Sequence record: OR352942.1
Strand: one strand, 5' to 3'
From: Escherichia phage AV112
Length of the DNA stretch: 64,000 bases
Position numbers and translations under genes: made by a program. This document shows, piece by piece, positions 5,000 to 40,568 of this stretch (positions within the stretch are counted from its first letter, which is position 1; every line of letters begins with the position of its first letter). Below the pieces are notes generated by a model. It was not told where the DNA came from. It saw only the letters and a list, made by a program, of their open reading frames with translations, and made no database searches.

Positions 5000-5040
5000 A
5001 TTATTTCCTCATTAGTTAATTCATTCTATCATCCGCTTAT

Positions 5041-5243: not shown

Positions 5244-5282
5244 GCATAATCACCTCTCAGAAAATACCTAAATCGATTTCTC

Positions 5283-5787: not shown

Positions 5788-5788
5788 A

Positions 5789-5998
5789 TTATCTCATTAA
5801 ATTAAAATAAAAACGTCCATCCTCTTCAATACGGAACTCATACTCAACCGGAGTCCCATTTATCGAAAATGACACGTCATGTGGGTTCAAAGGGTCGATG
5901 TCAAAATTAATTTTAAATTCACGACCCAACAGTTTTACCAAATAAGGGATTGCTTCGTCAAAAGGTTCTTCTAAGTAGTTAGAGATGTCAATTGTCAT
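5789..5998 (-). CDS. hypothetical protein (start uncertain)
   Basis: Track ORF 5789-6082 overlaps the 3' end of gene 55; an internal Met start would reduce the overlap. Confidence 0.3.
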
Positions 5999-6545: not shown

Positions 6546-6574
6546 AAGTACCTCTTAGCTCAATTCATAGGTCT

Positions 6575-6610
6575 ATTATATCATAATATTTAGAGACCTA
6601 TCTTAAAGCA
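6575..6610 (-). promoter_or_regulatory. candidate promoter upstream of gene 55: -10 TATAAT inside an 8-bp inverted repeat, MotA-box-like TGCTTTA upstream
   Basis: Plus strand ataggtct...agacctat flanks attata (minus TATAAT); RC of taaagca is TGCTTTA, but its spacing to this -10 is about 23 nt, longer than I recall for middle promoters. Confidence 0.3.
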
Positions 6611-6700
6611 CGAGATACTACCAAAGATACGTAACTTTCATAAAGTTGTCGACTTAAAATTCACCAAACTTTTATTCGGTTATAGTAATTCGAGATAGTT

Positions 6701-6928
6701 TCATTCTATTTCCTTTGCTGCAAATAAGGCAGCATCCAACGAATCAAATTGGTCAACGAAATCAATATTCAATGCATCGTCATCCGTAGCATATAACCAC
6801 CATTGTTTGAATTCGTATTCTAGAATAAATCCAGGACCTTCAATCTGAGGAAGACCTAGACTATTTGTACTAACTTCATAACCAGCTAGACGCAGGTCAT
6901 TAATCAAAGTTTCTGTTAATACGTTCAT
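6701..6928 (-). CDS. hypothetical protein
   Basis: 75-aa ORF. Confidence 0.35.
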   Translation of the reverse strand: MNVLTETLINDLRLAGYEVSTNSLGLPQIEGPGFILEYEFKQWWLYATDDDALNIDFVDQFDSLDAALFAAKEIE

Positions 6929-9319: not shown

Positions 9320-9790
9320 TTAATCATGTTTCCACACCCCGTCGGTATTTGTCCAAAGTCGCTGATTATCTGATCCTCGCCACAGTTTTTTGGTCGGAAG
9401 ATTTTTCTCATACTTCCCATCAATAATAACATCAACATATTTAAGCATTTCTAGTTGTTTAATATCTTCAAACTTATATCCTGTCCACAACCAAATGCTT
9501 TTATTGGGATAAAGTTTTTTTACTGTTTGAACAATGCAATGAACAACATCTTGGTTATCAGGATAGAGAGGGTCTCCTCCAGTTATAGTTAATCCTTCTA
9601 TATAATCATTATTCAAACATTCAATTAATTGTTCCAGCGTTTCACCGGTGAATGGGATACCATTTCTAGCGTTCCATGTTGATTTATTATAACACCCCTC
9701 GCATTTATGCAAACAACCTGTAACGAAAAGAACGACCCTGCAACCGGGGCCATTCACAAAATCGCAAGGATAAAATCTATCATAATTCAT
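9320..9790 (-). CDS. nrdG: anaerobic ribonucleotide reductase activase NrdG (radical SAM)
   Basis: 156 aa; CxxxCxxC-type cluster CLHKCEGC; same length as T4 NrdG. Confidence 0.9.
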   Translation of the reverse strand: MNYDRFYPCDFVNGPGCRVVLFVTGCLHKCEGCYNKSTWNARNGIPFTGETLEQLIECLNNDYIEGLTITGGDPLYPDNQDVVHCIVQTVKKLYPNKSIWLWTGYKFEDIKQLEMLKYVDVIIDGKYEKNLPTKKLWRGSDNQRLWTNTDGVWKHD

Positions 9791-11604
9791 TGGTGTTTAA
9801 CCCTATGCATGATTTCTTTATTTTTGCCGAGATTAAATCCGCGTTCGTTCGGATTTCCAAGATAACCGCATGTTCTTCTTATTGTGTTCATCTTTTTAGG
9901 ATCAGTTTCTCCGCAAACTGAACAAACAAATCCGGTTTCAGTAGGAGTCATTTCATGAGTACTTCCACATGTAAAACATTTATCTACTGGCATATTAACA
10001 CCAAAATAATCTAAATGTTGTGCAGCATAATCCCATACAGCCTCAAGACCTTTTAGGTTATTTTTCATATCAGGAAGTTCAACATAAGAAATGTGACCAC
10101 CAGTCGCAATGAAATGATATGGCGCTTCACGAGAAATCTTTTCAAACGGAGTAATATTTTCTTCTACTGAAACATGGAAACTATTAGTGTACCAGCCTTT
10201 ATCAGTAACATCTTTTACACTTCCATATTTTTCTGTATCAAGTTTACAGAAGCGATAACAAAGGTTTTCAGCAGGAGTAGAATACAAGCTAAAAGCAAAA
10301 CCGGTTCTTTCAGTCCACTGCTTAAGACGAGCATTCATTTTAGTTAAAATTTCTTGCCCAATATCACGTCCGGCAAGAATATTCAATTCGTGAATACCAA
10401 TGTATCCTAAAGACACTGAACTTCTACCGTTTTTAAATAACTCAATTATATCGTCATCAGGTTTAAGACGAACCCCGAATGCACCTTCTTGGTAAAGAAT
10501 AGGAGCAACAGTAGCTTTAACTCCTTTTAAGGAACTAATTCTACACATCAAAGCTTCAAAACACAAATCCATTCGCTCATTGAACAATTCGATAAATTTC
10601 TGTTCATTGAACTGTGTTCCAATATAAGAATCTAACGCAATGCGAGGAAGATTCAGTGTTACAACACCGAGATTATTACGTCCATCAAGAATTTCATTAC
10701 CAGTCGAATCTTTCCATACGCTCAAGAAACTACGGCAACCCATTGGAGAAACAGGAATAGACGAACCAGTGATAGCTTTATTGTTCTTAACTGAAATAAT
10801 ATCAGGATACATTCTTTTGCTTGCGCATTCTAAAGCAAGCTGTTTAATATCATAGTTCGGGTCGTCTTTATAAAGATTAACACCCTCTTCAACGAACATA
10901 ACAAGTTTAGGGAAAATAGGAGTTATTCCATCACGACCAAGGCCTTTAATACGATTTTTCAGAATTGCTTTCTGAATCATTCGTTCAGTCCAGTCAGTTC
11001 CAGTACCAAATGTAATTGTTACAAAAGGCGTTTGTCCGTTTGAACTAAAGAGAGTATTTACTTCGTATTCATACGCTTGGAATGCATCATATACGTCTTT
11101 TTCTGTTTTAGATTGAGCATAATTCAACGCATCAGCGATTTGCCATTTTTCTGCATCTTCAATATGTTTTGCATAGGTGCGTTTAACATAAGGAGAAAGA
11201 ACTTTATCGACATTCGCAAATGTAGTTCCACCATACTGATGCGAAGCAACCTGTGCGGTAATTTGTGCCATAATTGCAGTAGCAACACCAATCGATTTAG
11301 GCGTTTCAATTTGAGCATTGCCTAATTTAAATCCATTCTCAAGCATTCCTTTTAAATCTACTAAACAGCAATTAGTAAAAGGCAATGATATACTGTAATC
11401 TAAATCATGAAAATGAATTAATCCAACATTATGTGCATTTACAATATGACTTGGAAGAATACGACAAGCGATATGTTTAGAAACAATACCGGCCATTAAA
11501 TCTCTTTTTGTTGGAAAGACACGAGAATCTTTGTTGGCGTTTTCGGTATTTAATTCTTTATCTTTATTTGAAATAAAATTTAAAACATCTTTCTCTAAAG
11601 ACAT
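9787..11604 (-). CDS. nrdD: anaerobic ribonucleoside-triphosphate reductase NrdD, uninterrupted
   Basis: 605 aa; C-terminal glycyl-radical motif RRTCGYLG and C-terminal Cys zinc ribbon; continuous ORF. Confidence 0.92.
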   Translation of the reverse strand: MSLEKDVLNFISNKDKELNTENANKDSRVFPTKRDLMAGIVSKHIACRILPSHIVNAHNVGLIHFHDLDYSISLPFTNCCLVDLKGMLENGFKLGNAQIETPKSIGVATAIMAQITAQVASHQYGGTTFANVDKVLSPYVKRTYAKHIEDAEKWQIADALNYAQSKTEKDVYDAFQAYEYEVNTLFSSNGQTPFVTITFGTGTDWTERMIQKAILKNRIKGLGRDGITPIFPKLVMFVEEGVNLYKDDPNYDIKQLALECASKRMYPDIISVKNNKAITGSSIPVSPMGCRSFLSVWKDSTGNEILDGRNNLGVVTLNLPRIALDSYIGTQFNEQKFIELFNERMDLCFEALMCRISSLKGVKATVAPILYQEGAFGVRLKPDDDIIELFKNGRSSVSLGYIGIHELNILAGRDIGQEILTKMNARLKQWTERTGFAFSLYSTPAENLCYRFCKLDTEKYGSVKDVTDKGWYTNSFHVSVEENITPFEKISREAPYHFIATGGHISYVELPDMKNNLKGLEAVWDYAAQHLDYFGVNMPVDKCFTCGSTHEMTPTETGFVCSVCGETDPKKMNTIRRTCGYLGNPNERGFNLGKNKEIMHRVKHQ

Positions 11605-14649: not shown

Positions 14650-14954
14650 TATAATGTTCTCTCAAATTTGTGGAAGCATTTACGGCATTTCAATTTCAAG
14701 TTATCAGTGGTCCAGTTAACCAGTTGGACTTGGATAGTTCCACATTCCGGGCATGGATGTTTTGCTGCCGATTTGGCAGCATTTTCACGTCGTTCAACCA
14801 TTTTCATTATTTCGTTCCATGCCGGAGGAACGAACTCTTCTTCACCGTGGATTTTATCTCGCTGAACAAATTCAATCTTTGAACTATCGTCAATAAACTT
14901 AACCAAGCTGTGATTAGTGCTCATGTCAATATCCTCTAAAAGACGTAGTTTCAT
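14649..14954 (-). CDS. zinc-ribbon protein
   Basis: 101 aa; CPECG ... CRKC paired-Cys motifs. Confidence 0.45.
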   Translation of the reverse strand: MKLRLLEDIDMSTNHSLVKFIDDSSKIEFVQRDKIHGEEEFVPPAWNEIMKMVERRENAAKSAAKHPCPECGTIQVQLVNWTTDNLKLKCRKCFHKFERTL

Positions 14955-15904
14955 TATAAAACCTCAATGGCATTTCGTAAACCATCCGCTTTTGCATTCA
15001 GAGCTTTTAATGATTTAGTTTGTTCTGCAATCTGGGCTTCAACTTCTTTCAGACGAGATTTGAGGTATTCGCGTTCTTCTCTTAAGTTATCAACTTTTTC
15101 TGCTTTAGGCTCTTTAATAGGCTTAGGTTTATACGTATTAGGGTTCTTCAGTTTAATTAGAATGCGTGAACTGTACAGCATTGAACCATTATCTTCGGTT
15201 TCGTCATACATTTCCACTACGTCCATCATCTCCACCATCGTGCAGAGTTTATAAGACAACGAACGAATAGTTTTGTTGTGCTTATTAATTTCTTTAGAGT
15301 TCATGGTGCCTAGATTACGCGAGTAGTAATAAGGAACCTGGATATCAACTGACAATGATGCGTTACCATTGCCAGTTGGTTTGAATACTGCAGTAACCCA
15401 ATCTTTAACATGAACTTTATTTGTACGGCCATCACCGCCAGTGAATAATTTACGAGAATGTTTAAAAAGCATATTCACTTGGTTATTGAATTCACAAGCA
15501 AATTTATCAGCAAATTTAGTTTCAGGAATGGTAGATAACCAATCAGCTAAATGAGTCTTTTTAACATCGTTAATAATAGTAAATTCAACCAAATCAGTTT
15601 TAGATGTCACAGATTTAATAAAGCTCGGCTTCATAAAGTTTTTAATGTTATCGCGAGCTACAGTAGAAGATAATAAACGAGAACGTTTGAACCATTGAAG
15701 CAGTGTCCCTAATGAATGAGAATACGCATTCTGAGTATCTTTACAGATATGATTTTCTTGGCCTGTGTATGTACCAAAATCGCGAAGAATACCGCTTACT
15801 ACAACTCGGTGTGGAACATCAAATCCTAATGAACCAGAAGCACGTTGGGCATGAACGTTAGCGATAAGACCTGCAAAATAATCAATGTAATGTGAACGTG
15901 TCAT
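14954..15904 (-). CDS. hypothetical early protein with C-terminal coiled coil
   Basis: 316 aa; heptad-like tail EEREYLKSRLKEVEAQIAEQTKSLKALNAKADGLRNAIEVL. Confidence 0.5.
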   Translation of the reverse strand: MTRSHYIDYFAGLIANVHAQRASGSLGFDVPHRVVVSGILRDFGTYTGQENHICKDTQNAYSHSLGTLLQWFKRSRLLSSTVARDNIKNFMKPSFIKSVTSKTDLVEFTIINDVKKTHLADWLSTIPETKFADKFACEFNNQVNMLFKHSRKLFTGGDGRTNKVHVKDWVTAVFKPTGNGNASLSVDIQVPYYYSRNLGTMNSKEINKHNKTIRSLSYKLCTMVEMMDVVEMYDETEDNGSMLYSSRILIKLKNPNTYKPKPIKEPKAEKVDNLREEREYLKSRLKEVEAQIAEQTKSLKALNAKADGLRNAIEVL

Positions 15905-15932
15905 AATATTTTCCTCTCGTTAAGATAGAAAG

Positions 15933-15961
15933 ATTATACTCCAACCGTCCTTGGTTGTAAA
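15933..15961 (-). promoter_or_regulatory. sigma70-like early promoter with spacer stem-loop
   Basis: Minus strand TTTACA-17 nt-TATAAT; spacer contains CAACC/GGTTG inverted repeat. Confidence 0.55.
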
Positions 15962-15966
15962 CTGAT

Positions 15967-16899
15967 TTATGATTTTAATGCATTCATTGCGTTAAAAAGT
16001 TTAGAGTACTGCAACTGGAGCTTGGTAACTACTTGTTGAGCATCACGAAGCTTAGCTTGTGCTTTGTCAAGTTCAACAGACAGTTGATCCACAGTGCCTT
16101 TGATTTGATTATAATAGTAATCTTCGGCAGGAAGAAGGCCGTTAGAGATTTCCAGTTTAGTCGTCGGTGTGCCGTTAAACATAACAGGTTGTGCTGAAGC
16201 TGCATTAATCTTACCGATAGTCGGGGCGACAATAATTGACGCTTCGAACGTTGCATTTTCCTTTTTAAGATTTTGATAGTATTCAGAGTCTTTGTGCCAC
16301 CATGGCGCAGGAACCTTTTTACCAATAGATACACGAGCCTGGATAGCGATATGGCCCTTATTCTTGATAACGTCGATAATATTAAGCTCACGAGAATAAA
16401 TTGCTTTAATCTGGTGAATATTATCACCTAACACTTCCAACGCTTGGTGGAATACACGAGCAACGTTATCATTCTTAGGTTTATACGTAAGAGTGAACTC
16501 GTTCTCACTGATAACCATGATTTCTAACTTATCGTAAGTATATTTCAAATGTTTCATGTTAATTGCTTGAGGACGAATACGAGAAGCAATGGCCATCAGA
16601 TTGTTAAGGTTATTCCGGAACTGCTTAGCGAAATATTGTCCTTCACCACCAATACAAAAATTACGAAGTTTCTGTTTGGCTAATAAACGGCTGAACTCAC
16701 CGTTTTTAATGAACTCTTTAACGGGTGTGTTAGTAACGCATTCAAATTGAGTAAACTTACGAGAAGTAATCCCATAATATGAACAGATTTCCTCAATCTC
16801 TTCAGGAGTCTTTACAGGCATACGGATAGGATTAGGACCTGGGGTATATGCGTTCGAGGTAAATTCTTTGATAAGTTCTCTACGTGTAATAGAAGCCAT
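15967..16899 (-). CDS. hypothetical early protein with C-terminal coiled coil
   Basis: 310 aa; C-terminal LSVELDKAQAKLRDAQQVVTKLQLQYSKLFNAMNALKS. Confidence 0.5.
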   Translation of the reverse strand: MASITRRELIKEFTSNAYTPGPNPIRMPVKTPEEIEEICSYYGITSRKFTQFECVTNTPVKEFIKNGEFSRLLAKQKLRNFCIGGEGQYFAKQFRNNLNNLMAIASRIRPQAINMKHLKYTYDKLEIMVISENEFTLTYKPKNDNVARVFHQALEVLGDNIHQIKAIYSRELNIIDVIKNKGHIAIQARVSIGKKVPAPWWHKDSEYYQNLKKENATFEASIIVAPTIGKINAASAQPVMFNGTPTTKLEISNGLLPAEDYYYNQIKGTVDQLSVELDKAQAKLRDAQQVVTKLQLQYSKLFNAMNALKS

Positions 16900-16925
16900 T
16901 TTATATTCCTCATGTTGAAAAATTT

Positions 16926-16954
16926 ATTATACTCCAACCATCCTTGGTTGTACA
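16926..16954 (-). promoter_or_regulatory. sigma70-like early promoter, same cassette type as 15933-15961
   Basis: Minus strand TGTACA-17 nt-TATAAT; spacer shares ccaaccatccttggttg with the neighbouring cassette. Confidence 0.5.
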
Positions 16955-17950
16955 TCATTCCTTAAGAAGTTTTACTACTTGAATAAGATTAGCTCGTTCT
17001 GTTTTATTTTTACCGTTTAAGCCTGCTAATCGTGAGATTTCATCGTCAGTCTGTTGAATAGTTACATTAAGTTCGTTAATCAAAGCTTCAAAGTATTTGA
17101 TTTGCTCAGCATGTTTTGATTCAAATTTCTGAACCGGAATAACGTCTTGGTTTAGTTCATCAATAAGGTCTTTAAGAGCATCTTCTTGATTGATATCATA
17201 TTCAACTTCTTTTATTTCTTCAACGAGCTCGTCTTTATATCTAACGTCTTTTAGTCCTGGTGCTGGTCCTGAAATCTCTTCTTTAAGAGTACAAACATAT
17301 CCAATACGGTATCCAATGCCGTCTCGCTTGATATCAACTTCGTCAATAAATCCACAATGTTTAAGACCAGAGCCGATTAAGTCAAAATATCCTTGACGAC
17401 GTCCTTCAAACGTTACACGAACTACTAAGACAGTTTTACCTGCAACCTTTTGAAGCTCACATTTATAAAAGTTTGTTGAACCTGAATAACGTGGATGAGT
17501 TTTAAAGTTCATCTGACGATCTAGGCCCATTTGTAAGCGTGCTGATACGGCCATAAAACGTGTTTGGTTCTCGTTAAGATGAGCAACAATCCATTTCAAA
17601 GGCATTTTACACTGTTCACGACCGAACAAATCAGTACGTCCTAGATTACGCAGGATGTTGTTAGAGTTAATCATCGACAGAACATTAAGTTTATTCAGCG
17701 CGCTGAAGATTCCATCAGCCATTGATTTTCCGTAACCTTTACACGCTTTAATAAGCGCTCGCGGTAGATTAGCATAGATTTCAGACGGCATATGAAAATC
17801 AAATTTACTAGTCAGTAATTGATGAACTTGGATAGCAATTTGCTCATAATTAAGTGCTCTGCGATCATTATGATCTTTAAACCACACTTTAATCTGTGAA
17901 GCACATAAACCGTTAATTTCATGTTTTACCGCATCAGATGTAATGCTCAT
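16955..17950 (-). CDS. hypothetical early protein with C-terminal coiled coil
   Basis: 331 aa; acidic coiled-coil tail. Confidence 0.5.
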   Translation of the reverse strand: MSITSDAVKHEINGLCASQIKVWFKDHNDRRALNYEQIAIQVHQLLTSKFDFHMPSEIYANLPRALIKACKGYGKSMADGIFSALNKLNVLSMINSNNILRNLGRTDLFGREQCKMPLKWIVAHLNENQTRFMAVSARLQMGLDRQMNFKTHPRYSGSTNFYKCELQKVAGKTVLVVRVTFEGRRQGYFDLIGSGLKHCGFIDEVDIKRDGIGYRIGYVCTLKEEISGPAPGLKDVRYKDELVEEIKEVEYDINQEDALKDLIDELNQDVIPVQKFESKHAEQIKYFEALINELNVTIQQTDDEISRLAGLNGKNKTERANLIQVVKLLKE

Positions 17951-18012
17951 ATCTATTTCCTCAGATTGAATTGGAACTCAAAACCATTATAACCCGTCCT
18001 TGGGTAAAGCGT

Positions 18013-18540
18013 TTATGCGTGAACCGTCTTTAAACGTTCTTCAAATTTCCGAAGAGTACTAATACGTTCTGCTTTCTGTTTTGTATAGTTTGCAATACGT
18101 TCTGAAGTGAGAGCGTATCGTTCGTTTACTGTTTCTTTCATGAAGTCAGGGATTTCACGAGAAGCTTTAATTTCATCAAACTTATCGAGTACTGCCTGGT
18201 CTTCAGCGATTAAATTTTCGTACATCTCGATATCTTTCTTGATGAAGTCGATATCTTCCTGGGTTACTTTGGATAAACGAGATGCTTTATCCTTTTTGTA
18301 TTGCTCGTTAGTTTCACGAGACCAGAATAATGTACGTTTTTTGTTAGTGTTTTTGTAGACTTCCACAATTCCAACTGAATCGATGATAGCAATCCAATTC
18401 CAGCGAGATTTGAAAATCTGACCTCCGTCCACGGTAATCTCGTTACCATAAGCAACATCATTAAAGAACTTGCTTTGTGCTTCAGATTTAAATTTACCGT
18501 CGTTATAATTTACCAGGTTGAAAATATCTTTAGCGTTCAT
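18013..18540 (-). CDS. hypothetical protein
   Basis: 175-aa ORF. Confidence 0.45.
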   Translation of the reverse strand: MNAKDIFNLVNYNDGKFKSEAQSKFFNDVAYGNEITVDGGQIFKSRWNWIAIIDSVGIVEVYKNTNKKRTLFWSRETNEQYKKDKASRLSKVTQEDIDFIKKDIEMYENLIAEDQAVLDKFDEIKASREIPDFMKETVNERYALTSERIANYTKQKAERISTLRKFEERLKTVHA

Positions 18541-18564
18541 GTTTTACCTCCAGTAGTTGATAGG

Positions 18565-18597
18565 TCTATAATAACACAACCATAGACCTTGTAAACA
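18565..18597 (-). promoter_or_regulatory. early promoter with inverted repeat around the -10
   Basis: Minus strand GTTTACA...TGTGTTATTATAG; plus-strand taggtctat...atagacct inverted repeat. Confidence 0.5.
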
Positions 18598-18598
18598 A

Positions 18599-18886
18599 CT
18601 AAAAGAAACTTTTTTCGGTATTTTTTCCACTGAACCAAACCGACTTCGGGACTTTCTGTAATTTTTCGGATTTAAGTTTCTCTTCCTGTTCTTTCTTATA
18701 TGCATCCTTGTCGTACTGGAACAATTCTAAGGCATTCTTTTGTAGACGGTCTAAGGTAATTAAGGCTTTAGTTTTTCCTTTCAAGGAAGAGTCCTGGCGA
18801 ACCTCCTCGCTATATTGCATCGTAGAACTAACCATACGATGAGCATACAGTTCGACTGCGGCTTTAATTTTTTGCATAAAATCCAT
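18599..18886 (-). CDS. hypothetical protein
   Basis: 95-aa ORF. Confidence 0.4.
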   Translation of the reverse strand: MDFMQKIKAAVELYAHRMVSSTMQYSEEVRQDSSLKGKTKALITLDRLQKNALELFQYDKDAYKKEQEEKLKSEKLQKVPKSVWFSGKNTEKSFF

Positions 18887-19024
18887 AACATATCCTCTTT
18901 GATTTGTACACCATTATTTTTAAATATTTCTATGCCCTCAGTAGGTTCCTGGTGTCCTTCTTTGAGGTAAGCCATATGATTATTCATCTTTATGGCTTTT
19001 GTTACCTCAGAACTTCCTATAAGC

Positions 19025-20026
19025 TTATTTCAGTAAAGTAACTTCAGAGATTTCCTCCCAACCATCTTTATCAGTTGAAATAAAATCTGCTACATAAAGA
19101 GCCGTACGTAATGATACATTGCGAAGACGAGATACATTAGCCTTCATCCAGGACAATGCTTTATACGTTTCTGCATCTGTCAGACCACGTTTCTGCATCA
19201 TGTCAGTAGATAATATTACATCTTCAACTCGAACCATAATCTCTTCATTAGAGTGTACTCCAAGGTCGAGATACACTGAACGAGATACTAAAGCTTGAAG
19301 GTGTGGGGCAAGTTTCGAACCGCGTTCTAACTCTTTATCGATATCAACGTTTGTAATGAAAACGATAGTACCTTCAAACTCAAATTCTTTATCAATACCC
19401 TTATCATCGAGATAAGATGACGCAGTGCTCCAACAAACTTTGCGTTTATCTCCAGTATCTAATGCTGCTTTAAGAAGGTTCAAGATGTCCATATCTGAGA
19501 ATACGTCAACGTCGTCGATTAAGAGAACGCTGTCTGCATCACGGTTGAGCCAAAGTTGTTCGTAAAGGCCAATACCGGAGATTTTACCATTAATGCTTTT
19601 GTATTTGATGAAACCATTATCATTAGCGTTATTAAGTGCTTTATCCAGAGAATACGTCTTACCAATACCGGCTGCACCTGAAATAATGAGTGAACGAATT
19701 TTGCCATCGATAATGCCATTCGTCATCATGTTCATTACTTTAAAGCGTTTGTTGATACGAGTTTTCATATCTTCAGTGCTTTCAACAACTGCAACTGGTG
19801 ACGTCTCAACTCCTTCCATTACGATGTCTGATTTGAAGACCCATACTCCACGTTCAGACCCATCAATCATAACGAAAATTTTACCATCACCTAAGTGGGA
19901 ACATTCAGGATTAAGCTTTGCTGGGAACCATGTCTTTGTGGCAACATAAGAACCAGAGATTTCGTTATTACGATAAATACCTTTTTTGATTTGAACGTTG
20001 AACATTTTATTCTCCAATTTACTCAT
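19025..20026 (-). CDS. P-loop NTPase (AAA-like ATPase)
   Basis: 333 aa; Walker A ISGAAGIGKTYS and Walker B VLLIDDVD. Confidence 0.6.
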   Translation of the reverse strand: MSKLENKMFNVQIKKGIYRNNEISGSYVATKTWFPAKLNPECSHLGDGKIFVMIDGSERGVWVFKSDIVMEGVETSPVAVVESTEDMKTRINKRFKVMNMMTNGIIDGKIRSLIISGAAGIGKTYSLDKALNNANDNGFIKYKSINGKISGIGLYEQLWLNRDADSVLLIDDVDVFSDMDILNLLKAALDTGDKRKVCWSTASSYLDDKGIDKEFEFEGTIVFITNVDIDKELERGSKLAPHLQALVSRSVYLDLGVHSNEEIMVRVEDVILSTDMMQKRGLTDAETYKALSWMKANVSRLRNVSLRTALYVADFISTDKDGWEEISEVTLLK

Positions 20027-20039
20027 TTCGTTTCGATAG

Positions 20040-20072
20040 GTCTATAATAACATGTTTAAAGCAAAAGTAAAC
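20040..20072 (-). promoter_or_regulatory. early promoter (GTTTAC, 17-nt spacer, extended -10 TGT-TATTAT)
   Basis: RC reads GTTTAC-TTTTGCTTTAAACATGT-TATTAT, about 40 nt upstream of the ATPase start. Confidence 0.55.
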
Positions 20073-20074
20073 AA

Positions 20075-20293
20075 TTATTTGCGACGAGATTTTTTGGTAA
20101 GAGGTTGAAAGAACACTGCTTTACCTGCTGGGGTTAAGGTGACTCGTAATGCATTACCGATTCCTAAGGATGCTTTAACTAGACCTTTAGCTTTCAGTTC
20201 ACCGAATGCTTGACGTTGGTCTGCATCACGAGTGTTAACCATAAGACCTTTATCACCTGCTTCACGAATCATTTCTAACATTTTGGTTTTCAT
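20075..20293 (-). CDS. hypothetical small basic protein (start moved to internal Met)
   Basis: MKTKMLEMIREAGDKG... preceded by GAGGAG; the longer track ORF would run through the promoter. Confidence 0.45.
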   Translation of the reverse strand: MKTKMLEMIREAGDKGLMVNTRDADQRQAFGELKAKGLVKASLGIGNALRVTLTPAGKAVFFQPLTKKSRRK

Positions 20294-20379
20294 TTTGTTC
20301 TCCTCTTGTTTTGATAGGTCTATAATAACATATCCTAAAAGCATGTACACTACTTTTTAAAAATATTTTAACCCCCTAA

Positions 20380-20395
20380 AGGGACCCGAAGGTCC
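20380..20395 (-). terminator. hairpin GGGACC-UUCG-GGUCCC just after the stop of 20402-20683
   Basis: Plus strand gggaccc-gaag-gtcccc; minus-strand UUCG tetraloop hairpin followed by UUUAGGGGG rather than a clean U-run. Confidence 0.35.
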
Positions 20396-20401
20396 CCACA
20401 T

Positions 20402-20683
20402 TTACTTATCGCACTTAGCAACATAATTAGGCATATCACAGAATACGGAGCGAGTAACTACTCGGCCCTTTGACCATGCTTCAGTTGCTTGTCCGGCTGT
20501 GCTATTAATATAGCTTGATCTAATGTTCTCAATACCCTGAGAATGTGATGCATTTACCGAACCATTAGAAGACCCAGAAGACTGGTTACCACCAGCTCCT
20601 GCGCTACCGCTGGCTGCACCCGTGGTAGCACCAACAGAGAATGCCATCATTACTGCGAATAAACCAATTACTATTTTTTTCAT
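20402..20683 (-). CDS. small secreted Gly/Ser-rich protein
   Basis: 93 aa; N-terminal signal-peptide-like MKKIVIGLFAVMMAFSVGA, then a Gly/Ser/Asn-rich low-complexity stretch. Confidence 0.5.
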   Translation of the reverse strand: MKKIVIGLFAVMMAFSVGATTGAASGSAGAGGNQSSGSSNGSVNASHSQGIENIRSSYINSTAGQATEAWSKGRVVTRSVFCDMPNYVAKCDK

Positions 20684-20714
20684 ATTTACCTCAAGTTAAT
20701 GGTTATTTATCTAC

Positions 20715-21704
20715 TTATTTATAGTAAGAATTATGATTTTCGAGATAGACTTGTTCAAGGAAGTCATCCCAGAAACTCATATCTACTTTTTGTTGCATAC
20801 CGTTCTTGGCAGCTTGTTCTGATGCATGTTCAACTTGGTCAACGATATCTTCTAGGAATTCTTGTACAGTTTTAAACGTATGTTTACCAAGCTTAACATC
20901 GAGAATAAATGGAGCATCCTGAAGTGGGTAAACCAGGTCGCCGGTTTTATAAATTTCTAATAGTTGAAGTCCACCACGACATGCATGACTCAATGCTTTC
21001 CAGTCAATACCTTCGTTAGCTTCTGCCTTACGAGCACGTTCACCATAGTTCTCTTCCAGTTTAACCAGGATGGCATTGAACTCTTTATTGGTTAACGTGT
21101 CTTGGAATTTACGGTCTAACAGATTATAGAATGTTTGCTTACCTGTTTTCTCGTTTTCAGTTTCAACCCACGAAGCAAATTCACCTACAGGCAGAACATT
21201 CTTCATATGTGATAAACGAATTACTGCACCATTATCAAAGTATTGTCCCCATTCATTAGAACGTTTAAGGGCTTGACGAAGAACAGCCAGTCGAGAACCC
21301 TTGACACCGTATTTAGAAGCTTGTTTACGGACATACCCTAAATAAGATTTCATGTTAGTGGTATAGAAACGAGACCTGTTATCTTGAATATACTTCCATA
21401 CATCAGGCAAATCGGATTTAACTACTAAACTTGGTGGAGTGTGAAGCATATCTAATGCGACGGTTTCGCCATCTGCAGCTAGTTTAAAGAAATATTTGAG
21501 ACTATACAACTCATGGTCCACGTCGTCTTTTGTGTTCTTAGAAGATGTGTTATTTGTGTTCTTGCTCATATGTTCTTTAACGTTACCGGTCAAGATATCA
21601 CGAGCATGAGGGACATAAATTTCTTTAAAATCGACGTCAGATTCAGGAGTAGACGTTCCATAAAGGTGGCTACCAAAGTAGCCTTTCATAATTGTTTTCA
21701 TCAT
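20715..21704 (-). CDS. Pol-beta-superfamily minimal nucleotidyltransferase
   Basis: 329 aa; N-terminal GSHLYGTSTPESDVDF fits the hG[GS]-x(9-13)-D-x-[DE] nucleotidyltransferase signature. Confidence 0.55.
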   Translation of the reverse strand: MMKTIMKGYFGSHLYGTSTPESDVDFKEIYVPHARDILTGNVKEHMSKNTNNTSSKNTKDDVDHELYSLKYFFKLAADGETVALDMLHTPPSLVVKSDLPDVWKYIQDNRSRFYTTNMKSYLGYVRKQASKYGVKGSRLAVLRQALKRSNEWGQYFDNGAVIRLSHMKNVLPVGEFASWVETENEKTGKQTFYNLLDRKFQDTLTNKEFNAILVKLEENYGERARKAEANEGIDWKALSHACRGGLQLLEIYKTGDLVYPLQDAPFILDVKLGKHTFKTVQEFLEDIVDQVEHASEQAAKNGMQQKVDMSFWDDFLEQVYLENHNSYYK

Positions 21705-25287: not shown

Positions 25288-25766
25288 TCAACAATCACAA
25301 TTTCTAGTTTAGTGGAATACGTATCTAAAATCTCTTCGATGACATCCCAGTTTCCACCACCGATACCTGCACCAATTCTTGGCATATAAATTACAGGCTT
25401 TGTTATCTTATTCTTTCCGAATTCATTTAATTCTATTATACAATTCATTAAAGCATAGTACTCAAAATTAGGTCCAGGCTCAAACTGTGTATAAAGATTA
25501 AAGCAATAAGCTTTATGGGTCTTAAAATATTTTTCATAAACCGAATAAGTCCCGAGTTTAGACTCGTCTCCGAATTCGGTTTGAAGTTTATCGGCTTCTA
25601 AAATTTTTGGATAAGCCTTTGCTAATTGTCCTGCCACACCAGCGCCCATTGTATGAAAACAATTACACCCATGAGCAATATTATTACCTTTAGAAAACAG
25701 GGCGACAATATCGCCCTTGATATAGTTTTTAATCACTTGCTGCAAGTCCTCTAGTATAAGAGTCAA
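25269..25766 (-). CDS. macro domain protein (ADP-ribose binding/hydrolase fold)
   Basis: 165 aa; macrodomain-like Gly-rich motifs HGCNCFHTMGAGVAGQL and PRIGAGIGGGNW. Confidence 0.6.
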   Translation of the reverse strand: MTLILEDLQQVIKNYIKGDIVALFSKGNNIAHGCNCFHTMGAGVAGQLAKAYPKILEADKLQTEFGDESKLGTYSVYEKYFKTHKAYCFNLYTQFEPGPNFEYYALMNCIIELNEFGKNKITKPVIYMPRIGAGIGGGNWDVIEEILDTYSTKLEIVIVDWEPLL

Positions 25767-26076
25767 CTAGACGGTCCACCATAGAATTGCATGCTGCCTT
25801 ATCTTTAGGTTCCGCCACCGAGCATTCTAATATTTGCCATTTTTTATAGTATCTTTTAATTAAGGTAGACGCCTTGAACCTACTAGTCGCCCCATCTTTT
25901 TCTCCGTCTTTATACGCATATAACAATTTTTGTGAAAAATCTACTTTACACTCTTGACTTTTACCACAATAATCAGACGCTGTTCTGTTTGTATACTCCG
26001 TTACATCAGTATATGTAGTATTAGCAAGAGCGTTAAATGAAACCAAGCCAACTATTAAAGCCAACATTTTGGTCAT
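25729..26076 (-). CDS. secreted/periplasmic protein
   Basis: 115 aa; signal peptide MTKMLALIVGLVSFNALA. Confidence 0.45.
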   Translation of the reverse strand: MTKMLALIVGLVSFNALANTTYTDVTEYTNRTASDYCGKSQECKVDFSQKLLYAYKDGEKDGATSRFKASTLIKRYYKKWQILECSVAEPKDKAACNSMVDRLVDSYTRGLAASD

Positions 26077-26615
26077 TCTTTTATTTCCAGTAGTTTGTTT
26101 GATTTAAGGTAATTAGCCTTTTCTAGGACTTCAGAAGCATATTTACTTCCAGCACTTGTCTTCCATCCCGCATTATATGAGGATATAGCTTTTCTTATAT
26201 CCCCGTTATGTATATTTAACCAATAAGAAAATTCGATATAAGCCCATCTGGCTGAATTAGACCGCTTAGATAGCATTTTCTTAATTTGGGCATCAGTCAT
26301 ATTATAACCAAGCTGGTTAATTCTTGCCCTCATTGTTGGTAGATAATTTTGGAACATTCCATACGCATGGTGACCTTTCTTATCTTTAAGATTAATACCG
26401 GCAGATGATTCCTGCCATAGTATTGCGGCCATTATGTATCCAAGTCCTTTCTTATGCATGTTTTCATGCGTTTTAAATTTTCCATCCTTAGAAAACTGTT
26501 CCCCAAACTGATAAGCATAATTCAAGTTATCGAGTTGGACATTACTAAAAGTATGCTCGGAGCTATGTGCTGATAATGAAAGAGCAAATAGACCAGCGAG
26601 TAGTGCTTTTCTCAT
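26073..26615 (-). CDS. secreted lytic transglycosylase-like (SLT domain) protein
   Basis: 180 aa; signal peptide MRKALLAGLFALSLSAHS; SLT-like motifs ILWQESSAG, GMFQ, SYNAG. Confidence 0.6.
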   Translation of the reverse strand: MRKALLAGLFALSLSAHSSEHTFSNVQLDNLNYAYQFGEQFSKDGKFKTHENMHKKGLGYIMAAILWQESSAGINLKDKKGHHAYGMFQNYLPTMRARINQLGYNMTDAQIKKMLSKRSNSARWAYIEFSYWLNIHNGDIRKAISSYNAGWKTSAGSKYASEVLEKANYLKSNKLLEIKE

Positions 26616-26623
26616 GTTTACCT

Positions 26624-27082
26624 CTAGATTTTAATCACTGCTTTAGAAGCTTTTCCTGGTAGTCGTTTACTGTTAATAATAGCCATTCTGCATTGAAGAG
26701 TCTTCATTTTGAACGCTGGATTTTCGCGACAAACTGTAAGTCCTAACCAAAGATTTCCGTCAGTTATTTCTAAACGGCCTGGGCGATATTCGACACCTTC
26801 GACAAAATCTTCATCAACATCTGGACGTGCCGGCATTGATAAAAATTCTGTAACTTCTTTAACATGATTTTTTACTTTACGAAATAATTCAAAAACGTAG
26901 TTCTCATCTATTTCTCTCTGGATGGCACGATCTAAGAGATGTTGAGAATACTTGATATGAAAGCCTGGTAGTCCAAGAGACTTTGCAGCATCTTTTATAC
27001 CGGCATTTATTTTGCGGAACTCCGTTTCAAAGATTCGACGGAGTTTATTACGGCGGATAAAAACGTCAGAATTGATAGTCAT
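26624..27082 (-). CDS. regB: RegB endoribonuclease
   Basis: 152 aa; closely matches T4 RegB as recalled (MTIN..VFIRRNKLRR.FE.EFR...KYSQHLLDRAIQREIDE.YVFELF...ITDGNLWLG.TVC...CRMAIINS.RLPGKASKAVIK). Confidence 0.85.
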   Translation of the reverse strand: MTINSDVFIRRNKLRRIFETEFRKINAGIKDAAKSLGLPGFHIKYSQHLLDRAIQREIDENYVFELFRKVKNHVKEVTEFLSMPARPDVDEDFVEGVEYRPGRLEITDGNLWLGLTVCRENPAFKMKTLQCRMAIINSKRLPGKASKAVIKI

Positions 27083-27104
27083 TTTTTATTTCTCCTCTAG
27101 TTGA

Positions 27105-27141
27105 CAGGTCTATAGTAACACATCTAGAGGAGAAGTAAACT
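27105..27141 (-). promoter_or_regulatory. early promoter with flanking inverted repeat CCTCTAG/CTAGAGG
   Basis: RC reads GTTTAC-N17-TGTTACTATAG; the -10 is enclosed by a 7-bp inverted repeat. Confidence 0.5.
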
Positions 27142-27144
27142 ACT

Positions 27145-27360
27145 TTATTGATAAAATGGAGTTAAAGCCCAAGATTCTTTAGATACCATATCGGCGAAAT
27201 GCCTCATCTCTTCGATTTGGCGACGACGCTGGTCAGCATAGTCTTCTTCGCCTTCTTCCTTACAATCTTCAAGGTCTTCTTCAAGATACTTTAAGTATTC
27301 ACTACAAATTTTGTTGATCTTTTCTTGAAAGTCCAATAACCCTGTAATAGTAGAAGCCAT
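27145..27360 (-). CDS. hypothetical acidic protein
   Basis: 71-aa ORF. Confidence 0.4.
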   Translation of the reverse strand: MASTITGLLDFQEKINKICSEYLKYLEEDLEDCKEEGEEDYADQRRRQIEEMRHFADMVSKESWALTPFYQ

Positions 27361-27626
27361 TAGTATTTTTCCTCAGGTCGAAATACTGCACGACACGCCC
27401 ACATGCTGGCTTCTTTTAGATGTTGCTTAGCATACTTAAGAGCCTGCACTGCATCCATATCTTCTTTGGTTTGTTGCTCTGATTCATTTTCTTTCAAGAT
27501 ATATGCTTCTTCAATCAGAGCATCAAACATCAATCCAAGACGGACTTCTGCATCTTTAATAGCGTTCACTTTACTGATTTTATCATCGGTATGCGGCTTG
27601 TAGCCTTTGATGTCTTCAATCGACAT
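27360..27626 (-). CDS. hypothetical protein (start moved to internal Met)
   Basis: Track ORF 27360-27794 overlaps the upstream ORF; MSIEDIKGYKP... is the likely start. Confidence 0.35.
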   Translation of the reverse strand: MSIEDIKGYKPHTDDKISKVNAIKDAEVRLGLMFDALIEEAYILKENESEQQTKEDMDAVQALKYAKQHLKEASMWACRAVFRPEEKY

Positions 27627-27840
27627 AAGGAATTTCCTCATCGGTGGCAAGGTCATATTCGACCAATTGGATAGGCTCATTAATACCGTATCCGCGTACA
27701 GTGATATCGGTTGACGGATATTTTCCAGTAATATCACCAATTCTAAATGATTCAATGAATGATTGCTCGCCTGAGCAACTAAACCAGGCGGCAAAACATT
27801 TTAAAACATCTTCAGACCCTTCTATAATCAATTTAGCCAT
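27616..27840 (-). CDS. hypothetical protein
   Basis: 74-aa ORF. Confidence 0.35.
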   Translation of the reverse strand: MAKLIIEGSEDVLKCFAAWFSCSGEQSFIESFRIGDITGKYPSTDITVRGYGINEPIQLVEYDLATDEEIPYVD

Positions 27841-28202
27841 TATAGGCTCTCAGTAAAGGTACGAGCGATAACGTCGCGCTGCTGTTCCGGAGTCAGAGAG
27901 TTAAAGCGAACTGCATAACCGGATACACGGATGGTCAGCTGTGGATATTTTTCCGGATGCTTAACTGCATCTTCCAGAGTTTCACGACGCAGAACGTTAA
28001 CGTTCAGGTGTTGACCACCTTCAATTTTAACTTTAGGTTGATGTTCAATTTCAATTTCACGGGCATTCAAACCGTAGAAAATTTCTGGGTCTACAATAGC
28101 GTCTTCTTTAAAAGTCTTAGAGACAATAATCCGGGCTTGAGCACCGTCTTCAAAATAAATAGTGCCTTTATGTACACCTTCAAGAATTTGATATGCTTTC
28201 AT
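27840..28202 (-). CDS. grcA: autonomous glycyl-radical cofactor (GrcA/YfiD-like; T4 Y06I-like)
   Basis: 120 aa; C-terminal [61 protein letters not shown] matches E. coli GrcA as recalled, including the glycyl-radical RVSGYAV motif. Confidence 0.8.
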
Positions 28203-28208
28203 ATAACC

Positions 28209-28565
28209 TCAATTAGAAAATAAATTTATCCAAGATTTTTCTTTAATCAAAAATGGGTCGGAATTAAACGCCATTAAACTTTGGGTGATTAATCCCTTAA
28301 ATGGTCCATCAATAAATTCCATTTTGAAATGTGGAATACTAGTCATCAACCGTGCATTAGGAGCAGTACAAAGAACCTGCTGACCTGCGAACGGACCTTT
28401 AGTCAAACGATATCGTTTAGGTTTAAAATGGTAAATCTCGTAATTTTCTACAAGAGCCCTTTTATTGCATACTGGGCTGTTATAACAATACTCAAAAACT
28501 TCAATAGTGGTCATCATTGCATTCCAATCACAAAAAATTGAGGACGAGCAATACCGCCGATGCAA
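28209..28565 (-). CDS. hypothetical protein
   Basis: 118-aa ORF, Cys-rich N-terminus. Confidence 0.35.
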   Translation of the reverse strand: MHRRYCSSSIFCDWNAMMTTIEVFEYCYNSPVCNKRALVENYEIYHFKPKRYRLTKGPFAGQQVLCTAPNARLMTSIPHFKMEFIDGPFKGLITQSLMAFNSDPFLIKEKSWINLFSN

Positions 28566-29053
28566 TATTTGCTTTTGCAGCAGTGCTGTATTGCTTTAAT
28601 ATGGACATTGTAAATCTTATCCATATCAGGAGCTTTAATAGGCTCGTCAATTATATACAGAATACGAGAAAGCGTTAATCCACGGAATTTAGAACCTTCA
28701 TTACCAATAAAACTACGGACAGAATCAGTAAATAAACGGAATCGAATATCATCGCTAGAATAACGTGAAAATTCTTTTTTAATGTTGCCAGCAGAAATTT
28801 TAGCATAAGCTGAAGTATTAGAAAGAACAATAACTGTTCCACCATCGAGCAGCCAATTAGCGGCAAAATTAGTTACTGCGGTAGATTTACCAGATTGTCT
28901 GCCACCGTCTAAACGAAGTGTACAGTACTGCTTGAGTACGTCTTCAAATGGTGGGGCACAACCGTTCTTACAAATTTCTTCTACTCTAGCATCAGAATGG
29001 TGTGTAAAAGCATTCATCAGGGATAGATAAGGTCCAGTTAAAAATGTTCTCAT
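28514..29053 (-). CDS. P-loop NTPase
   Basis: Walker A GGRQSGKST and Walker B ILYIIDEP; start placed at MRTFLTGPY. Confidence 0.5.
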   Translation of the reverse strand: MRTFLTGPYLSLMNAFTHHSDARVEEICKNGCAPPFEDVLKQYCTLRLDGGRQSGKSTAVTNFAANWLLDGGTVIVLSNTSAYAKISAGNIKKEFSRYSSDDIRFRLFTDSVRSFIGNEGSKFRGLTLSRILYIIDEPIKAPDMDKIYNVHIKAIQHCCKSKYCIGGIARPQFFVIGMQ

Positions 29054-39740: not shown

Positions 39741-39816
39741 TGGTCGAGACAGTAGGGGTCGAACCTACGACCTAGGACTTAGAAGGTCCTTGCTCTTCCT
39801 TCTGAGCTATGCCTCG
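39741..39816 (-). tRNA. tRNA-Arg (anticodon TCT), CCA encoded
   Basis: Manual fold: acceptor CGAGGCA/TGTCTCG, D-arm GCTC..GAGC, anticodon loop CTTCTAA, T-arm GTAGG-TTCGACC-CCTAC. Confidence 0.8.
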
Positions 39817-39820
39817 GATT

Positions 39821-39895
39821 TGGCGGACATGCATGGATTCGAACCATGGACCAATTGATTAACAGTCAACTGCTCTACCACTGAGCTACACATCC
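39821..39895 (-). tRNA. tRNA-Asn (anticodon GTT), CCA encoded
   Basis: Manual fold: acceptor GGATGTG/CATGTCC, D-arm GCTC-AGTGGTA-GAGC, anticodon loop CTGTTAA, T-loop TTCGAAT. Confidence 0.75.
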
Positions 39896-39899
39896 AAAT

Positions 39900-39986
39900 T
39901 GGTTGGGAGTGATGGAGTCGAACCACCTGAGTCGCAATGACAATGGATTTACAGTCCACACCGCTACCTCTACGGGATAACTCCCC
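39900..39986 (-). tRNA. tRNA-Tyr (anticodon GTA), long variable arm, CCA encoded
   Basis: Manual fold: anticodon stem GTGGA/TCCAT, loop CTGTAAA, about 15-nt variable arm, T-arm GGTGG-TTCGACT-CCATC; pair 1:72 appears as G-A, so the 5' end is uncertain by 1 nt. Confidence 0.6.
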
Positions 39987-39995
39987 AAATTAATT

Positions 39996-40070
39996 TGGTG
40001 GCCCTGGGTGGAATTGAACCACCATCTGGCGATTATGAGTCGCTTGCTTGAACCTTCCAGCTACAGGGCC
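39996..40070 (-). tRNA. tRNA with anticodon CAT (Ile2/lysidine type or elongator Met), CCA encoded
   Basis: Manual fold: acceptor GGCCCTG/CAGGGCC (1:72 paired, so not initiator), anticodon loop CTCATAA, T-arm GGTGG-TTCAATT-CCACC. Confidence 0.7.
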
Positions 40071-40071
40071 T

Positions 40072-40147
40072 TGGTGCTGATTGACGGAATTGAACCACCG
40101 ACCTTCTCATTACAAGTGAGTTGCTCTACCTACTGAGCTAAATCAGC
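40072..40147 (-). tRNA. tRNA-Thr (anticodon TGT), CCA encoded
   Basis: Manual fold: acceptor GCTGATT/AATCAGC, D-arm GCTC-AGTAGGTA-GAGC, anticodon loop CTTGTAA. Confidence 0.8.
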
Positions 40148-40152
40148 AAAAC

Positions 40153-40242
40153 TGGCGGAGGCGATAGGATTTGAACCTATGAGTCGCCGGAGCGACTGCC
40201 GGTTTTCAAGACCGGTGCATTAAACCACTCTGCCACGCCTCC
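40153..40242 (-). tRNA. tRNA-Ser (anticodon TGA), type II, CCA encoded
   Basis: Manual fold: acceptor GGAGGCG/CGCCTCC, anticodon stem CCGGT/ACCGG, loop CTTGAAA, long variable arm, T-arm ATAGG-TTCAAAT-CCTAT. Confidence 0.8.
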
Positions 40243-40244
40243 AG

Positions 40245-40318
40245 TCTCCATACAAGGATTTGAACCTTGGACCTCCTGATCCCAAATCAGGCGCTCTACC
40301 AAACTGAGCTACACGGAG
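40245..40318 (-). tRNA. tRNA-Pro (anticodon TGG), no encoded CCA; 2 nt upstream of tRNA-Ser
   Basis: Manual fold: acceptor CTCCGTG/TATGGAG, D-arm GCTC-AGTTTGGTA-GAGC, anticodon loop TTTGGGA, T-arm CAAGG-TTCAAAT-CCTTG. Confidence 0.8.
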
Positions 40319-40328
40319 TAAATTAAAT

Positions 40329-40402
<74 letters not shown>

Positions 40403-40407
40403 AAATT

Positions 40408-40494
40408 TGGTGCGAGAAGTGGGACTCGAACCCACAAGGAAATCATTCCGCAGCATTTTAAGTGCTGTGCCTTTACCAATTTGACCATTCTCGC
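40408..40494 (-). tRNA. tRNA-Leu (anticodon TAA), type II, CCA encoded
   Basis: Manual fold: acceptor GCGAGAA/TTCTCGC, anticodon stem CAGCA/TGCTG, loop CTTAAAA, long variable arm, T-arm GTGGG-TTCGAGT-CCCAC. Confidence 0.8.
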
Positions 40495-40495
40495 G

Positions 40496-40568
40496 CTGGG
40501 AATAAAGGACTCGAACCTTTGCATCCTGGAATCAAAATCCAGTGCCTTACCAACTTGGCTAATTCCCA
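40496..40568 (-). tRNA. tRNA-Gln (anticodon TTG), no encoded CCA; 1 nt upstream of tRNA-Leu
   Basis: Manual fold: acceptor TGGGAAT/ATTCCCA, anticodon stem CTGGA/TCCAG, loop TTTTGAT, T-arm AAAGG-TTCGAGT-CCTTT. Confidence 0.8.

Follow-up and report, generated by a model that had tools for sequence, protein, structure and literature searches.

E. coli YfiD (GrcA) and the Y06I protein of phage T4 are the only two spare-part proteins that have been validated (PMC8683613). According to the account given there of the work of Knappe and co-workers, both proteins are radicalised by the pyruvate formate-lyase (PFL)-activating enzyme and restore PFL that has been cleaved by O2 (Wagner 2001, as cited in PMC8683613), and the existence of spare parts for other glycyl-radical enzymes has been speculated upon by the same authors (PMC8683613). 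The C-terminal radical domain of YfiD substitutes for the cleaved PFL domain, and its N-terminus is disordered and needed only for efficient radical installation, a role that has been described as 'enigmatic' (PMC13450708).

Here we describe a gene of this type in a stretch of 64,000 nucleotides from Escherichia phage AV112 (OR352942.1), hereafter the window. The best overall explanation of the data, which we consider very probable, is that the gene is a Mosigvirus vs.6 encoding a phage GrcA and that its 3' part carries a host-derived tract.

The vs.6 gene and its protein

The gene vs.6, or phage grcA (27840..28202, minus strand), is an intact open reading frame of 120 amino acid residues with an ATG start, annotated here as an autonomous glycyl radical cofactor. 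A putative Shine-Dalgarno sequence, GAGG (28207..28210, minus strand), is located 4 nt 5' of the ATG and overlaps the TGA stop codon of vs.7, and at the other end of the gene the stop codon shares bases with the start codon of the following gene (TAATG). Such tight gene packing is usual for T-even early regions. Scans for promoters and terminators around vs.6 gave counts no better than those obtained in shuffled sequence.

vs.6 is positioned between vs.7 and vs.5, in the tk-vs-regB-denV region, as expected for the orthologue of T4 vs.6, and the gene order vs.8-vs.7-vs.6-vs.5-vs.4-regB-vs.1-vs-tk is common to Escherichia phage AV113, RB69 and T4. The 2.2 kb around the gene are 100% identical to AV113, a phage of the genus Mosigvirus (RB69-like, T-even) from wastewater in Denmark, in whose complete genome vs.6 is intact and annotated as 'autonomous glycyl radical cofactor' (WPK34852.1); a disruption of the reading frame, raised as a possibility in the original prediction, is thereby dismissed. 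The protein is identical to that of T4 in 112 of 120 positions (93%) and to that of T2 in 94.2%. The vs.6 sequence of OES_C-2 has a 6-nt deletion. GrcA homologues are found in 1,587 phage records, among them those of T5-like phages and of T4-like phages of Klebsiella, Enterobacter and Aeromonas, and in some distant phages the homologue adjoins nrdG or nrdC. Since the GrcA annotation is already given in the AV113 record and in hundreds of relatives, finding the gene is not new, and it is already known from a close relative as T4 vs.6/Y06I.

The family assignment is supported by several sequence comparisons. The Pfam family PF01228 (Gly_radical) matches residues 59-101 (1.9e-18), the best solved structure is that of E. 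coli GrcA (PDB 6owr, NMR; residues 20-120, E=1.4e-42), and the second structural match by sequence is the C-terminus of pyruvate formate-lyase, PflB (2.9e-26). The best NCBIfam model is the GrcA equivalog TIGR04365 (residues 18-120), with a score of 159.1 bits that falls below the NCBI curated cut-off of 170 for a full-length equivalog; we attribute this shortfall to the divergence of the N-terminal half and not to membership of another family. The glycyl-radical domain and the radical-glycine motif RVSGYAV that characterize GrcA/YfiD proteins (InterPro IPR011140) are present, and the protein has the size of a stand-alone cofactor (~14 kDa, without a catalytic barrel), with 120 residues and separate genes on either side. 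The predicted glycyl-radical site is Gly95 (codon GGT, 27918..27920, minus strand), in the motif RVSGYAVRF, in which Ser94, Gly95 and Tyr96 are invariant in the alignment of homologues; its counterparts are Gly102 in E. coli GrcA and Gly734 in PflB (C-terminus aligned, residues 696-759). A single-sequence structure model of the protein had a pLDDT of 41. The Pfam, NCBIfam and PDB matches, together with the AV113 annotation and gene order, identify the product of vs.6 (27840..28202) as an autonomous glycyl-radical protein of the GrcA type and, in Mosigvirus, the orthologue of T4 Vs.6 (Y06I). The original prediction had proposed a GrcA-like cofactor and pointed to Y06I as a T4 homologue; both proposals hold, and the relationship to Y06I is one of direct syntenic orthology.

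The two halves of the protein relate differently to E. coli GrcA/YfiD. Residues 61-120 are identical in 60 of 60 positions, and residue 60 is an isoleucine in the phage and a valine in E. coli. The original prediction had proposed this match over some 60 C-terminal residues, for a stretch of 61 residues that corresponds to residues 60-120, and the alignment removes the concern that the identity might be much lower. The N-terminal half, also correctly recognized as divergent, is identical to the GrcA N-terminus in 14 of 39 positions (36%; E=8e-6 in BLASTP of this half alone) and thus, as judged from sequence, divergent yet homologous. Its beginning, MKAYQ..., is conserved in phage lineages as far off as RB43 and T5-like phages, and the C-terminal 60 residues are near-invariant among all phage and bacterial homologues aligned. 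Nevertheless, substitutions in the radical domain do occur elsewhere, since PflB differs in 12 of 64 aligned positions and the homologues of T5-like phages differ in 11 of 60. Perfect identity to GrcA is evidently dispensable for function, and the identity of the C-terminal half alone is therefore uninformative on selection.

A host-derived tract in the 3' half

At the nucleotide level vs.6 is a mosaic of three segments. The first (28025..28202, minus strand; gene nt 1-178, residues 1-59) is an old, AT-rich, phage-type 5' half with a GC3 of 0.22. The second (27850..28024, minus strand; gene nt 179-353, residues ~60-118) is the coding sequence of the glycyl-radical domain, with a single mismatch to E. 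coli grcA in 175 nt. The third is a short 3' tail (27843..27849, minus strand; gene nt 354-360), in which the haplotype table shows phage-type synonymous states (GAG, CTA). Over the last 180 nt of the gene, three differences from E. coli grcA were observed, all of them synonymous. The identity breakpoints are sharp: upstream of the tract CGCG stands against AAAA, followed by roughly 50% identity, and downstream the similarity to E. coli collapses in the last ~10 nt of the gene, with none beyond the stop codon. The GC3 of the 3' half of vs.6 (0.42) is close to that of the 3' half of E. coli grcA (0.43), in a window with an overall GC of 0.37. The nucleotide donor of the tract is grcA and not pflB.

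When the 64-kb window was compared by megablast with 5,426 complete E. coli genomes, the sole match was 27832-28024, and the tract is present within grcA in all 5,426 of them; at this level of search, the window contains no other E. coli-like DNA. To our knowledge, T-even phages are usually described as essentially without DNA similarity to their host.

The original prediction had left host-derived acquisition and strong constraint as alternatives and suggested nucleotide comparison with enterobacterial grcA as the means to separate recent transfer from convergence. This comparison is decisive: the first alternative stands, and constraint alone does not account for the tract. If convergent constraint were the explanation, phage grcA would be an old acquisition in which selection on the protein, for docking to PflA and PflB of the host, and for E. 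coli-optimal codons had fixed the 3' half with no recent transfer, as the near-invariance of the C-terminal 60 residues in all homologues and the biased codon usage of grcA might suggest. However, enterobacteria with nearly the same protein differ from E. coli in 13 (Citrobacter) to 29 (Salmonella) of the last 180 nt, and phages in only 3-5. Likewise, the synonymous divergence (dS) of the tract from E. coli is 0.046 in the window phage and 0-0.047 among phages, a range that includes Escherichia sp. MOD1 (0.046) but not Citrobacter (0.41), Klebsiella (0.80) or Salmonella (1.06), and 190 of 200 neighbour-joining bootstraps of the 171-nt core unite E. coli and Escherichia sp. MOD1 with the T-even phages in one bipartition. 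Encoding the same protein with phage codon usage yields 134±3.9 identical nucleotides of 171 and never more than 149 in 20,000 draws, whereas 170 are observed. If codons are taken site by site from 79 non-Escherichia grcA genes, 33.7 of 57 are expected to match E. coli and 56 do, the best non-Escherichia grcA reaching 44; under this site-specific bacterial codon null, the probability that all 57 codons are identical is ~1e-16. Codon selection would also have to spare the N-terminal half of the same mRNA, which retains phage-type codons (GC3 0.22), and RB43, FL37 and T5-like E. coli phages have kept the protein motif without the nucleotide identity. We give convergent constraint practically no credence, and consider it settled that the tract is Escherichia DNA, acquired by recent host-to-phage transfer.

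Near-identity by itself has no direction, and transfer in the opposite sense, in which a T-even phage would have supplied E. coli with the 3' half of grcA, has to be weighed as well. A phage-derived segment in E. coli should stand out from the rest of the bacterial gene, but the dS between E. coli and Citrobacter is 0.41 in the core and 0.54 in the N-terminal part, and that between E. coli and Salmonella 1.06 and 0.84, respectively; no Escherichia-specific discontinuity is seen in the grcA phylogeny near nt ~200. Furthermore, the clade of Escherichia and phages is nested among enterobacterial grcA, beside Citrobacter, the tract is found in the grcA of every one of the 5,426 E. coli genomes, and its composition is that of the host (GC3 0.42 against 0.22 in the 5' half, window GC 0.37). 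The reverse direction is thus very improbable. Because the E. coli tract lies at an ordinary distance from its relatives and has host-type composition, the direction of transfer is from host to phage. Only one Escherichia-specific derived site is found in the 171-nt core, too few to be of use. One variant of IME537 is also that of Escherichia sp. MOD1, but the base is common elsewhere (19 of 80 bacteria).

Age, number of imports and distribution among phages

Junctions and haplotypes were compared in 16 phages, 5 Mosigvirus and 11 Tequatrovirus, including five IMG/VR contigs. Between the window phage and T4, synonymous differences are near saturation in seven flanking genes (pS 0.62) and less frequent in the 5' half of vs.6 (dS 0.36, pS 0.28), and in the tract dS is 0.047; the contrast in synonymous divergence between tract and flanks is highly significant (Fisher p=8e-15). 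The 16 phages show 11 fixed differences between the two genera in the N-terminal half (nt 1-178) and a further one in the tail, but none in the tract (nt 179-353; N-terminal half against tract, p=8e-4). The absence of fixed differences and the low divergence of the tract imply that it was installed, or re-installed, after Mosigvirus and Tequatrovirus had separated.

A minimum of one transfer from host to phage must be assumed, and several such events or phage-to-phage spread are both possible. One account, which we hold tentatively and as close to evenly balanced, is a recurrent host-to-phage conversion in which the E. coli chromosome serves as a 'master copy' and keeps the radical-domain half identical to that of the host. 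Genus-specific differences are still found only 8 nt from the 5' junction (nt 162 and 170), a pattern in favour of independent imports from the host, each extending to the limit of homology. The tract substitutions are private except at two sites, so that E. coli is the centre of a star, and each genus has phages without any tract difference from E. coli. At the 3' end the junction is staggered, with the E. coli-type states ending at differing points before the stop codon among phages and with four-gamete violations at sites 357/358 and 357/360, and in AREG1 an E. coli-type G is found one codon further 5'. Alternatively, the tract could have been imported once and then spread by recombination between Tequatrovirus and Mosigvirus phages in cells infected by both, without further exchange with the host. 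Such a history is compatible with the essentially single 5' junction of all 16 phages, with a vs.6 that is as a whole less diverged between the genera (N-terminal half pS 0.28) than its flanks (pS 0.62), and with the abundant four-gamete violations across vs.6 that indicate phage-phage recombination. A Poisson dispersion test of the differences from E. coli among phages, which would detect unequal import ages, was not significant (p=0.11); this result is compatible with a single age, and we do not count it as evidence for repeated imports. However, with genus differences so near to the junction, a phage-phage crossover would have to fall exactly at the border between host and phage sequence, and neither the star centred on E. 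coli, nor the 3' junctions staggered towards the stop codon, nor the occurrence of zero-difference members in both genera is readily expected from one import. We regard a single import as a serious possibility, although we lean somewhat against it.

Among phage records, 638 are at least 95% identical to nt 200-384 of E. coli grcA, none of which covers more of grcA, and outside Tequatrovirus and Mosigvirus the tract is essentially absent. Isolates of these genera from Yersinia, Hafnia, Shigella and Salmonella carry the E. coli-type tract and not that of their own host, no phage was found with a Salmonella-type tract (best match 83.8%), and the E. coli-type tract is missing from E. coli phages of other genera (RB43, Krischvirus FL37 and T5-like phages). 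In Klebsiella Jiaodavirus, the GC3 of the 3' half is 0.60, against 0.23 in the 5' half. This 3' half groups loosely with grcA of Klebsiella and Pseudocitrobacter, at a divergence of at least 10%. The identity of the Klebsiella phages to E. coli grcA is 85-89%, that to the grcA of a Klebsiella MAG is at best 90-95%, and their nearest sampled bacterium is Pseudocitrobacter, with 19 differences in 180 nt (80 grcA loci, without K. pneumoniae). From these sequence comparisons, the 3' half of the Klebsiella phages may represent an older, separate import. Host tracking as a general rule was considered and rejected, as the Salmonella-type tract occurs in no phage and the Klebsiella phages are not close to Klebsiella grcA.

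Proposed role and comparison with known systems

Since the protein of the window phage is orthologous to Y06I and has an identical radical domain, by analogy it should act as a PFL spare part. In the mechanism that we propose, the host activase PflA (PFL-AE) would place a glycyl radical on Gly95 of the phage protein; once host PFL has been cleaved by O2 at its radical glycine, the phage protein would supply its C-terminal domain of ~60 residues in place of the lost fragment and restore activity. During micro-aerobic infection, PFL rescued in this way would sustain the output of acetyl-CoA/ATP and formate. The class III ribonucleotide reductase of E. coli uses formate as its hydrogen donor, as Mulliez et al. 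reportedly found in 1995, and formate may likewise feed the class III reductase of the phage. The genes of the latter, nrdD (9787-11604) and nrdG (9320-9790), are both within the window, ~16 kb from vs.6 and not adjacent to it, and vs.6 would plausibly guard the dNTP supply in anaerobic or micro-aerobic infection. The original prediction had taken these companion genes as a sign of investment in anaerobic metabolism, which we judge reasonable.

A different main role, in which the phage protein would serve TdcE or phage NrdD, or would be a decoy titrating PflA, instead of mainly rescuing PflB, draws on the unsettled function of the N-terminus even in YfiD (PMC13450708), on the 36% identity of the phage N-terminal half, on the proximity of nrdG or nrdC to the homologue in some distant phages and on the speculation about spare parts for other glycyl-radical enzymes (PMC8683613). 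We consider it unlikely: T4 Y06I is activated by PFL-AE and reconstitutes O2-cleaved PFL, in the account of PMC8683613 (Wagner 2001), the radical domain is identical to that of GrcA and shares 52 of 64 positions with PflB, and NrdD belongs to a separate Pfam family (NRDD).

As to the origin of the mosaic, an old phage grcA with an AT-rich 5' half, encoding a poorly constrained N-terminal region, had its 3' ~175 nt, exactly the radical domain, exchanged by homologous recombination with the chromosomal grcA of Escherichia. This replacement postdates both the Mosigvirus/Tequatrovirus split and the separation of Escherichia from Citrobacter and Salmonella. We found no paper that discusses a nucleotide mosaic of vs.6 in the searchable full-text literature, which does not by itself prove that the mosaic is unpublished. 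It provides an unusually clear and datable case of homologous exchange from the host to a virulent phage, and might serve to quantify such events in experiments. The breakpoint falls on the border between the enigmatic, disordered N-terminal region and the GrcA radical domain, and the T-even, Klebsiella-phage, RB43 and T5-like N-termini on near-identical radical domains form a natural domain-swap series, useful for the question of the role of the N-terminus in radical installation. If recurrent conversion were true, the locus would also offer a natural and measurable readout of recombination between the host chromosome and a virulent, host-DNA-degrading phage, and the phage accessory gene would be continually re-synchronised with its host partners PflA and PflB.

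The phage protein shares with E. coli GrcA/YfiD (6owr) the small autonomous format and the same C-terminal 60 residues, radical glycine motif included, with DNA identical in 174 of 175 nt across the radical domain and a detectably homologous N-terminal half. It differs in that this N-terminal half is only 36% identical, 7 residues shorter and AT-rich, and in that the gene is placed in an early/middle cluster of a virulent phage and not beside ung. With the C-terminal domain of PflB (and TdcE), the very portion that the spare-part protein replaces, it has in common the fold family and the motif (52 of 64 residues identical to PflB 696-759), but it is without the ~700-residue catalytic barrel that bears the Cys418/Cys419 pair. 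T4 Vs.6 (Y06I) is the closest described relative, a syntenic protein of 120 residues with vs.7 and vs.5 as neighbours and the same E. coli grcA mosaic, its tract having 1 difference from E. coli grcA. The eight amino acid changes between the two proteins comprise seven in the N-terminal half and R73H, private to T4, inside the tract, and the window phage has Mosigvirus-type synonymous states (GAG, CTA) in its 3' tail; the biochemistry is that of the T4 protein, whereas the protein of the window phage is known from its sequence. The GrcA proteins of other phages (Jiaodavirus of Klebsiella, RB43, FL37, the T5-like Tequintavirus and Aeromonas phages) have the same architecture, with a phage-type N-terminus and a conserved radical domain, but are without the Escherichia-type tract and differ from E. 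coli in 28-79 of the last 180 nt.

Recombination between host and phage within an auxiliary metabolic gene is known from cyanophage psbA. The vs.6 mosaic is a clean, quantifiable example of this type of event, and the two cases are alike in the presence of host-type patches, sharp breakpoints and a shift in composition within a phage copy of a metabolic gene. In vs.6, however, the exchange is limited to the functional domain of a very small gene, the tract is almost identical to the current host allele, and the recipient is a virulent coliphage that degrades the DNA of its host.

Divergence and variants of vs.6 among T-even phages

Between Mosigvirus and Tequatrovirus, the phage-type 5' half of vs.6 (window 28025-28202) has a pS of 0.28, far below that of its neighbours, since the seven genes that flank vs.6 (window 25729-29017) gave values of 0.49-0.81 (pooled, 0.62) in the same comparison. 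The perfectly conserved tract, that is, the E. coli grcA-derived half encoding the radical domain, may have served as an anchor for the exchange of the entire vs.6 gene between phages.

Nonsynonymous changes are rare in the otherwise invariant radical domain of vs.6 (R73H in the T4 reference, L011 7558-7920; V69I in RB69; E106G in WFL6982, L094 123-485; and E118K in UFV-AREG1). The vs.6 gene of the Tequatrovirus Escherichia phage OES_C-2 (L092 129-485) is 357 nt long, having lost 6 nt in frame from the part that encodes the N-terminal half, where the protein reads ...EIETQP... instead of ...EIEIE?QP.... Among the phages examined, it is also the vs.6 in which E. coli-type sequence comes nearest to the stop codon, with only GAG differing.

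Orthologues in Klebsiella phages

Orthologues of vs.6 were identified in Klebsiella phages pKp20 (L005 301-663) and RCIP0102 (L099 123-485), and a strong composition break is present in these genes too, with a GC3 of 0.23 in the 5' half and 0.60 in the 3' half. The 3' half groups loosely with grcA of Klebsiella and Pseudocitrobacter, from which it differs at a minimum of 19 of 180 positions, and PflB-like residues (LLDAVEHPEKYP) are present in the Klebsiella-phage orthologues. This 3' half may represent a second, older host-derived replacement.

In Klebsiella sp. WOUb02 (L032, NZ_CP170105.1), a full-length grcA, the product of which shares 92% amino acid identity with that of E. coli, is located on a 276-kb replicon named 'plasmid unnamed4'. 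This replicon is possibly a chromid, or else a contig that was wrongly assigned.

Annotation of other regions of the window

In the nrdC.x region (window ~14954-21704; L001, the AV113 record, 1-6702), at least seven large ORFs in a run are named 'thioredoxin' in the AV113 GenBank record. These labels look as if they had been transferred from the gene names (nrdC.1-nrdC.11) and did not denote real thioredoxins; in T4, nrdC.11 is annotated as a nucleotidyltransferase. The AV113 annotation further places ten tRNA genes (Arg, Asn, Tyr, Met, Thr, Ser, Pro, Gly, Leu and Gln) in a cluster at window ~39744-40568 (L001 24745-25569), for which megablast returned no match in the 5,426 E. coli genomes searched.

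Gene neighbourhood of the phage grcA

Two genes downstream of vs.6, vs.4 (window 27360-27626, minus strand) encodes an 88-amino acid product that matches Pfam PF24729 (Acb2/Tad1 hairpin domain; 8.2e-18). Proteins of this family serve phages as 'sponges' by sequestering cyclic-nucleotide immune signals (anti-CBASS/Thoeris). In the AV113 record, the vs.4 product is labelled hypothetical.

In more distant T4-like phages, the grcA homologue directly adjoins nrdG, nrdC and nrdH (Aeromonas phage phiAS5, L010 1-960) or nrdC (Escherichia phage FL37, L009 292-1005), and these gene neighbours are consistent with a functional link between the pyruvate formate-lyase spare part and anaerobic deoxynucleotide synthesis.
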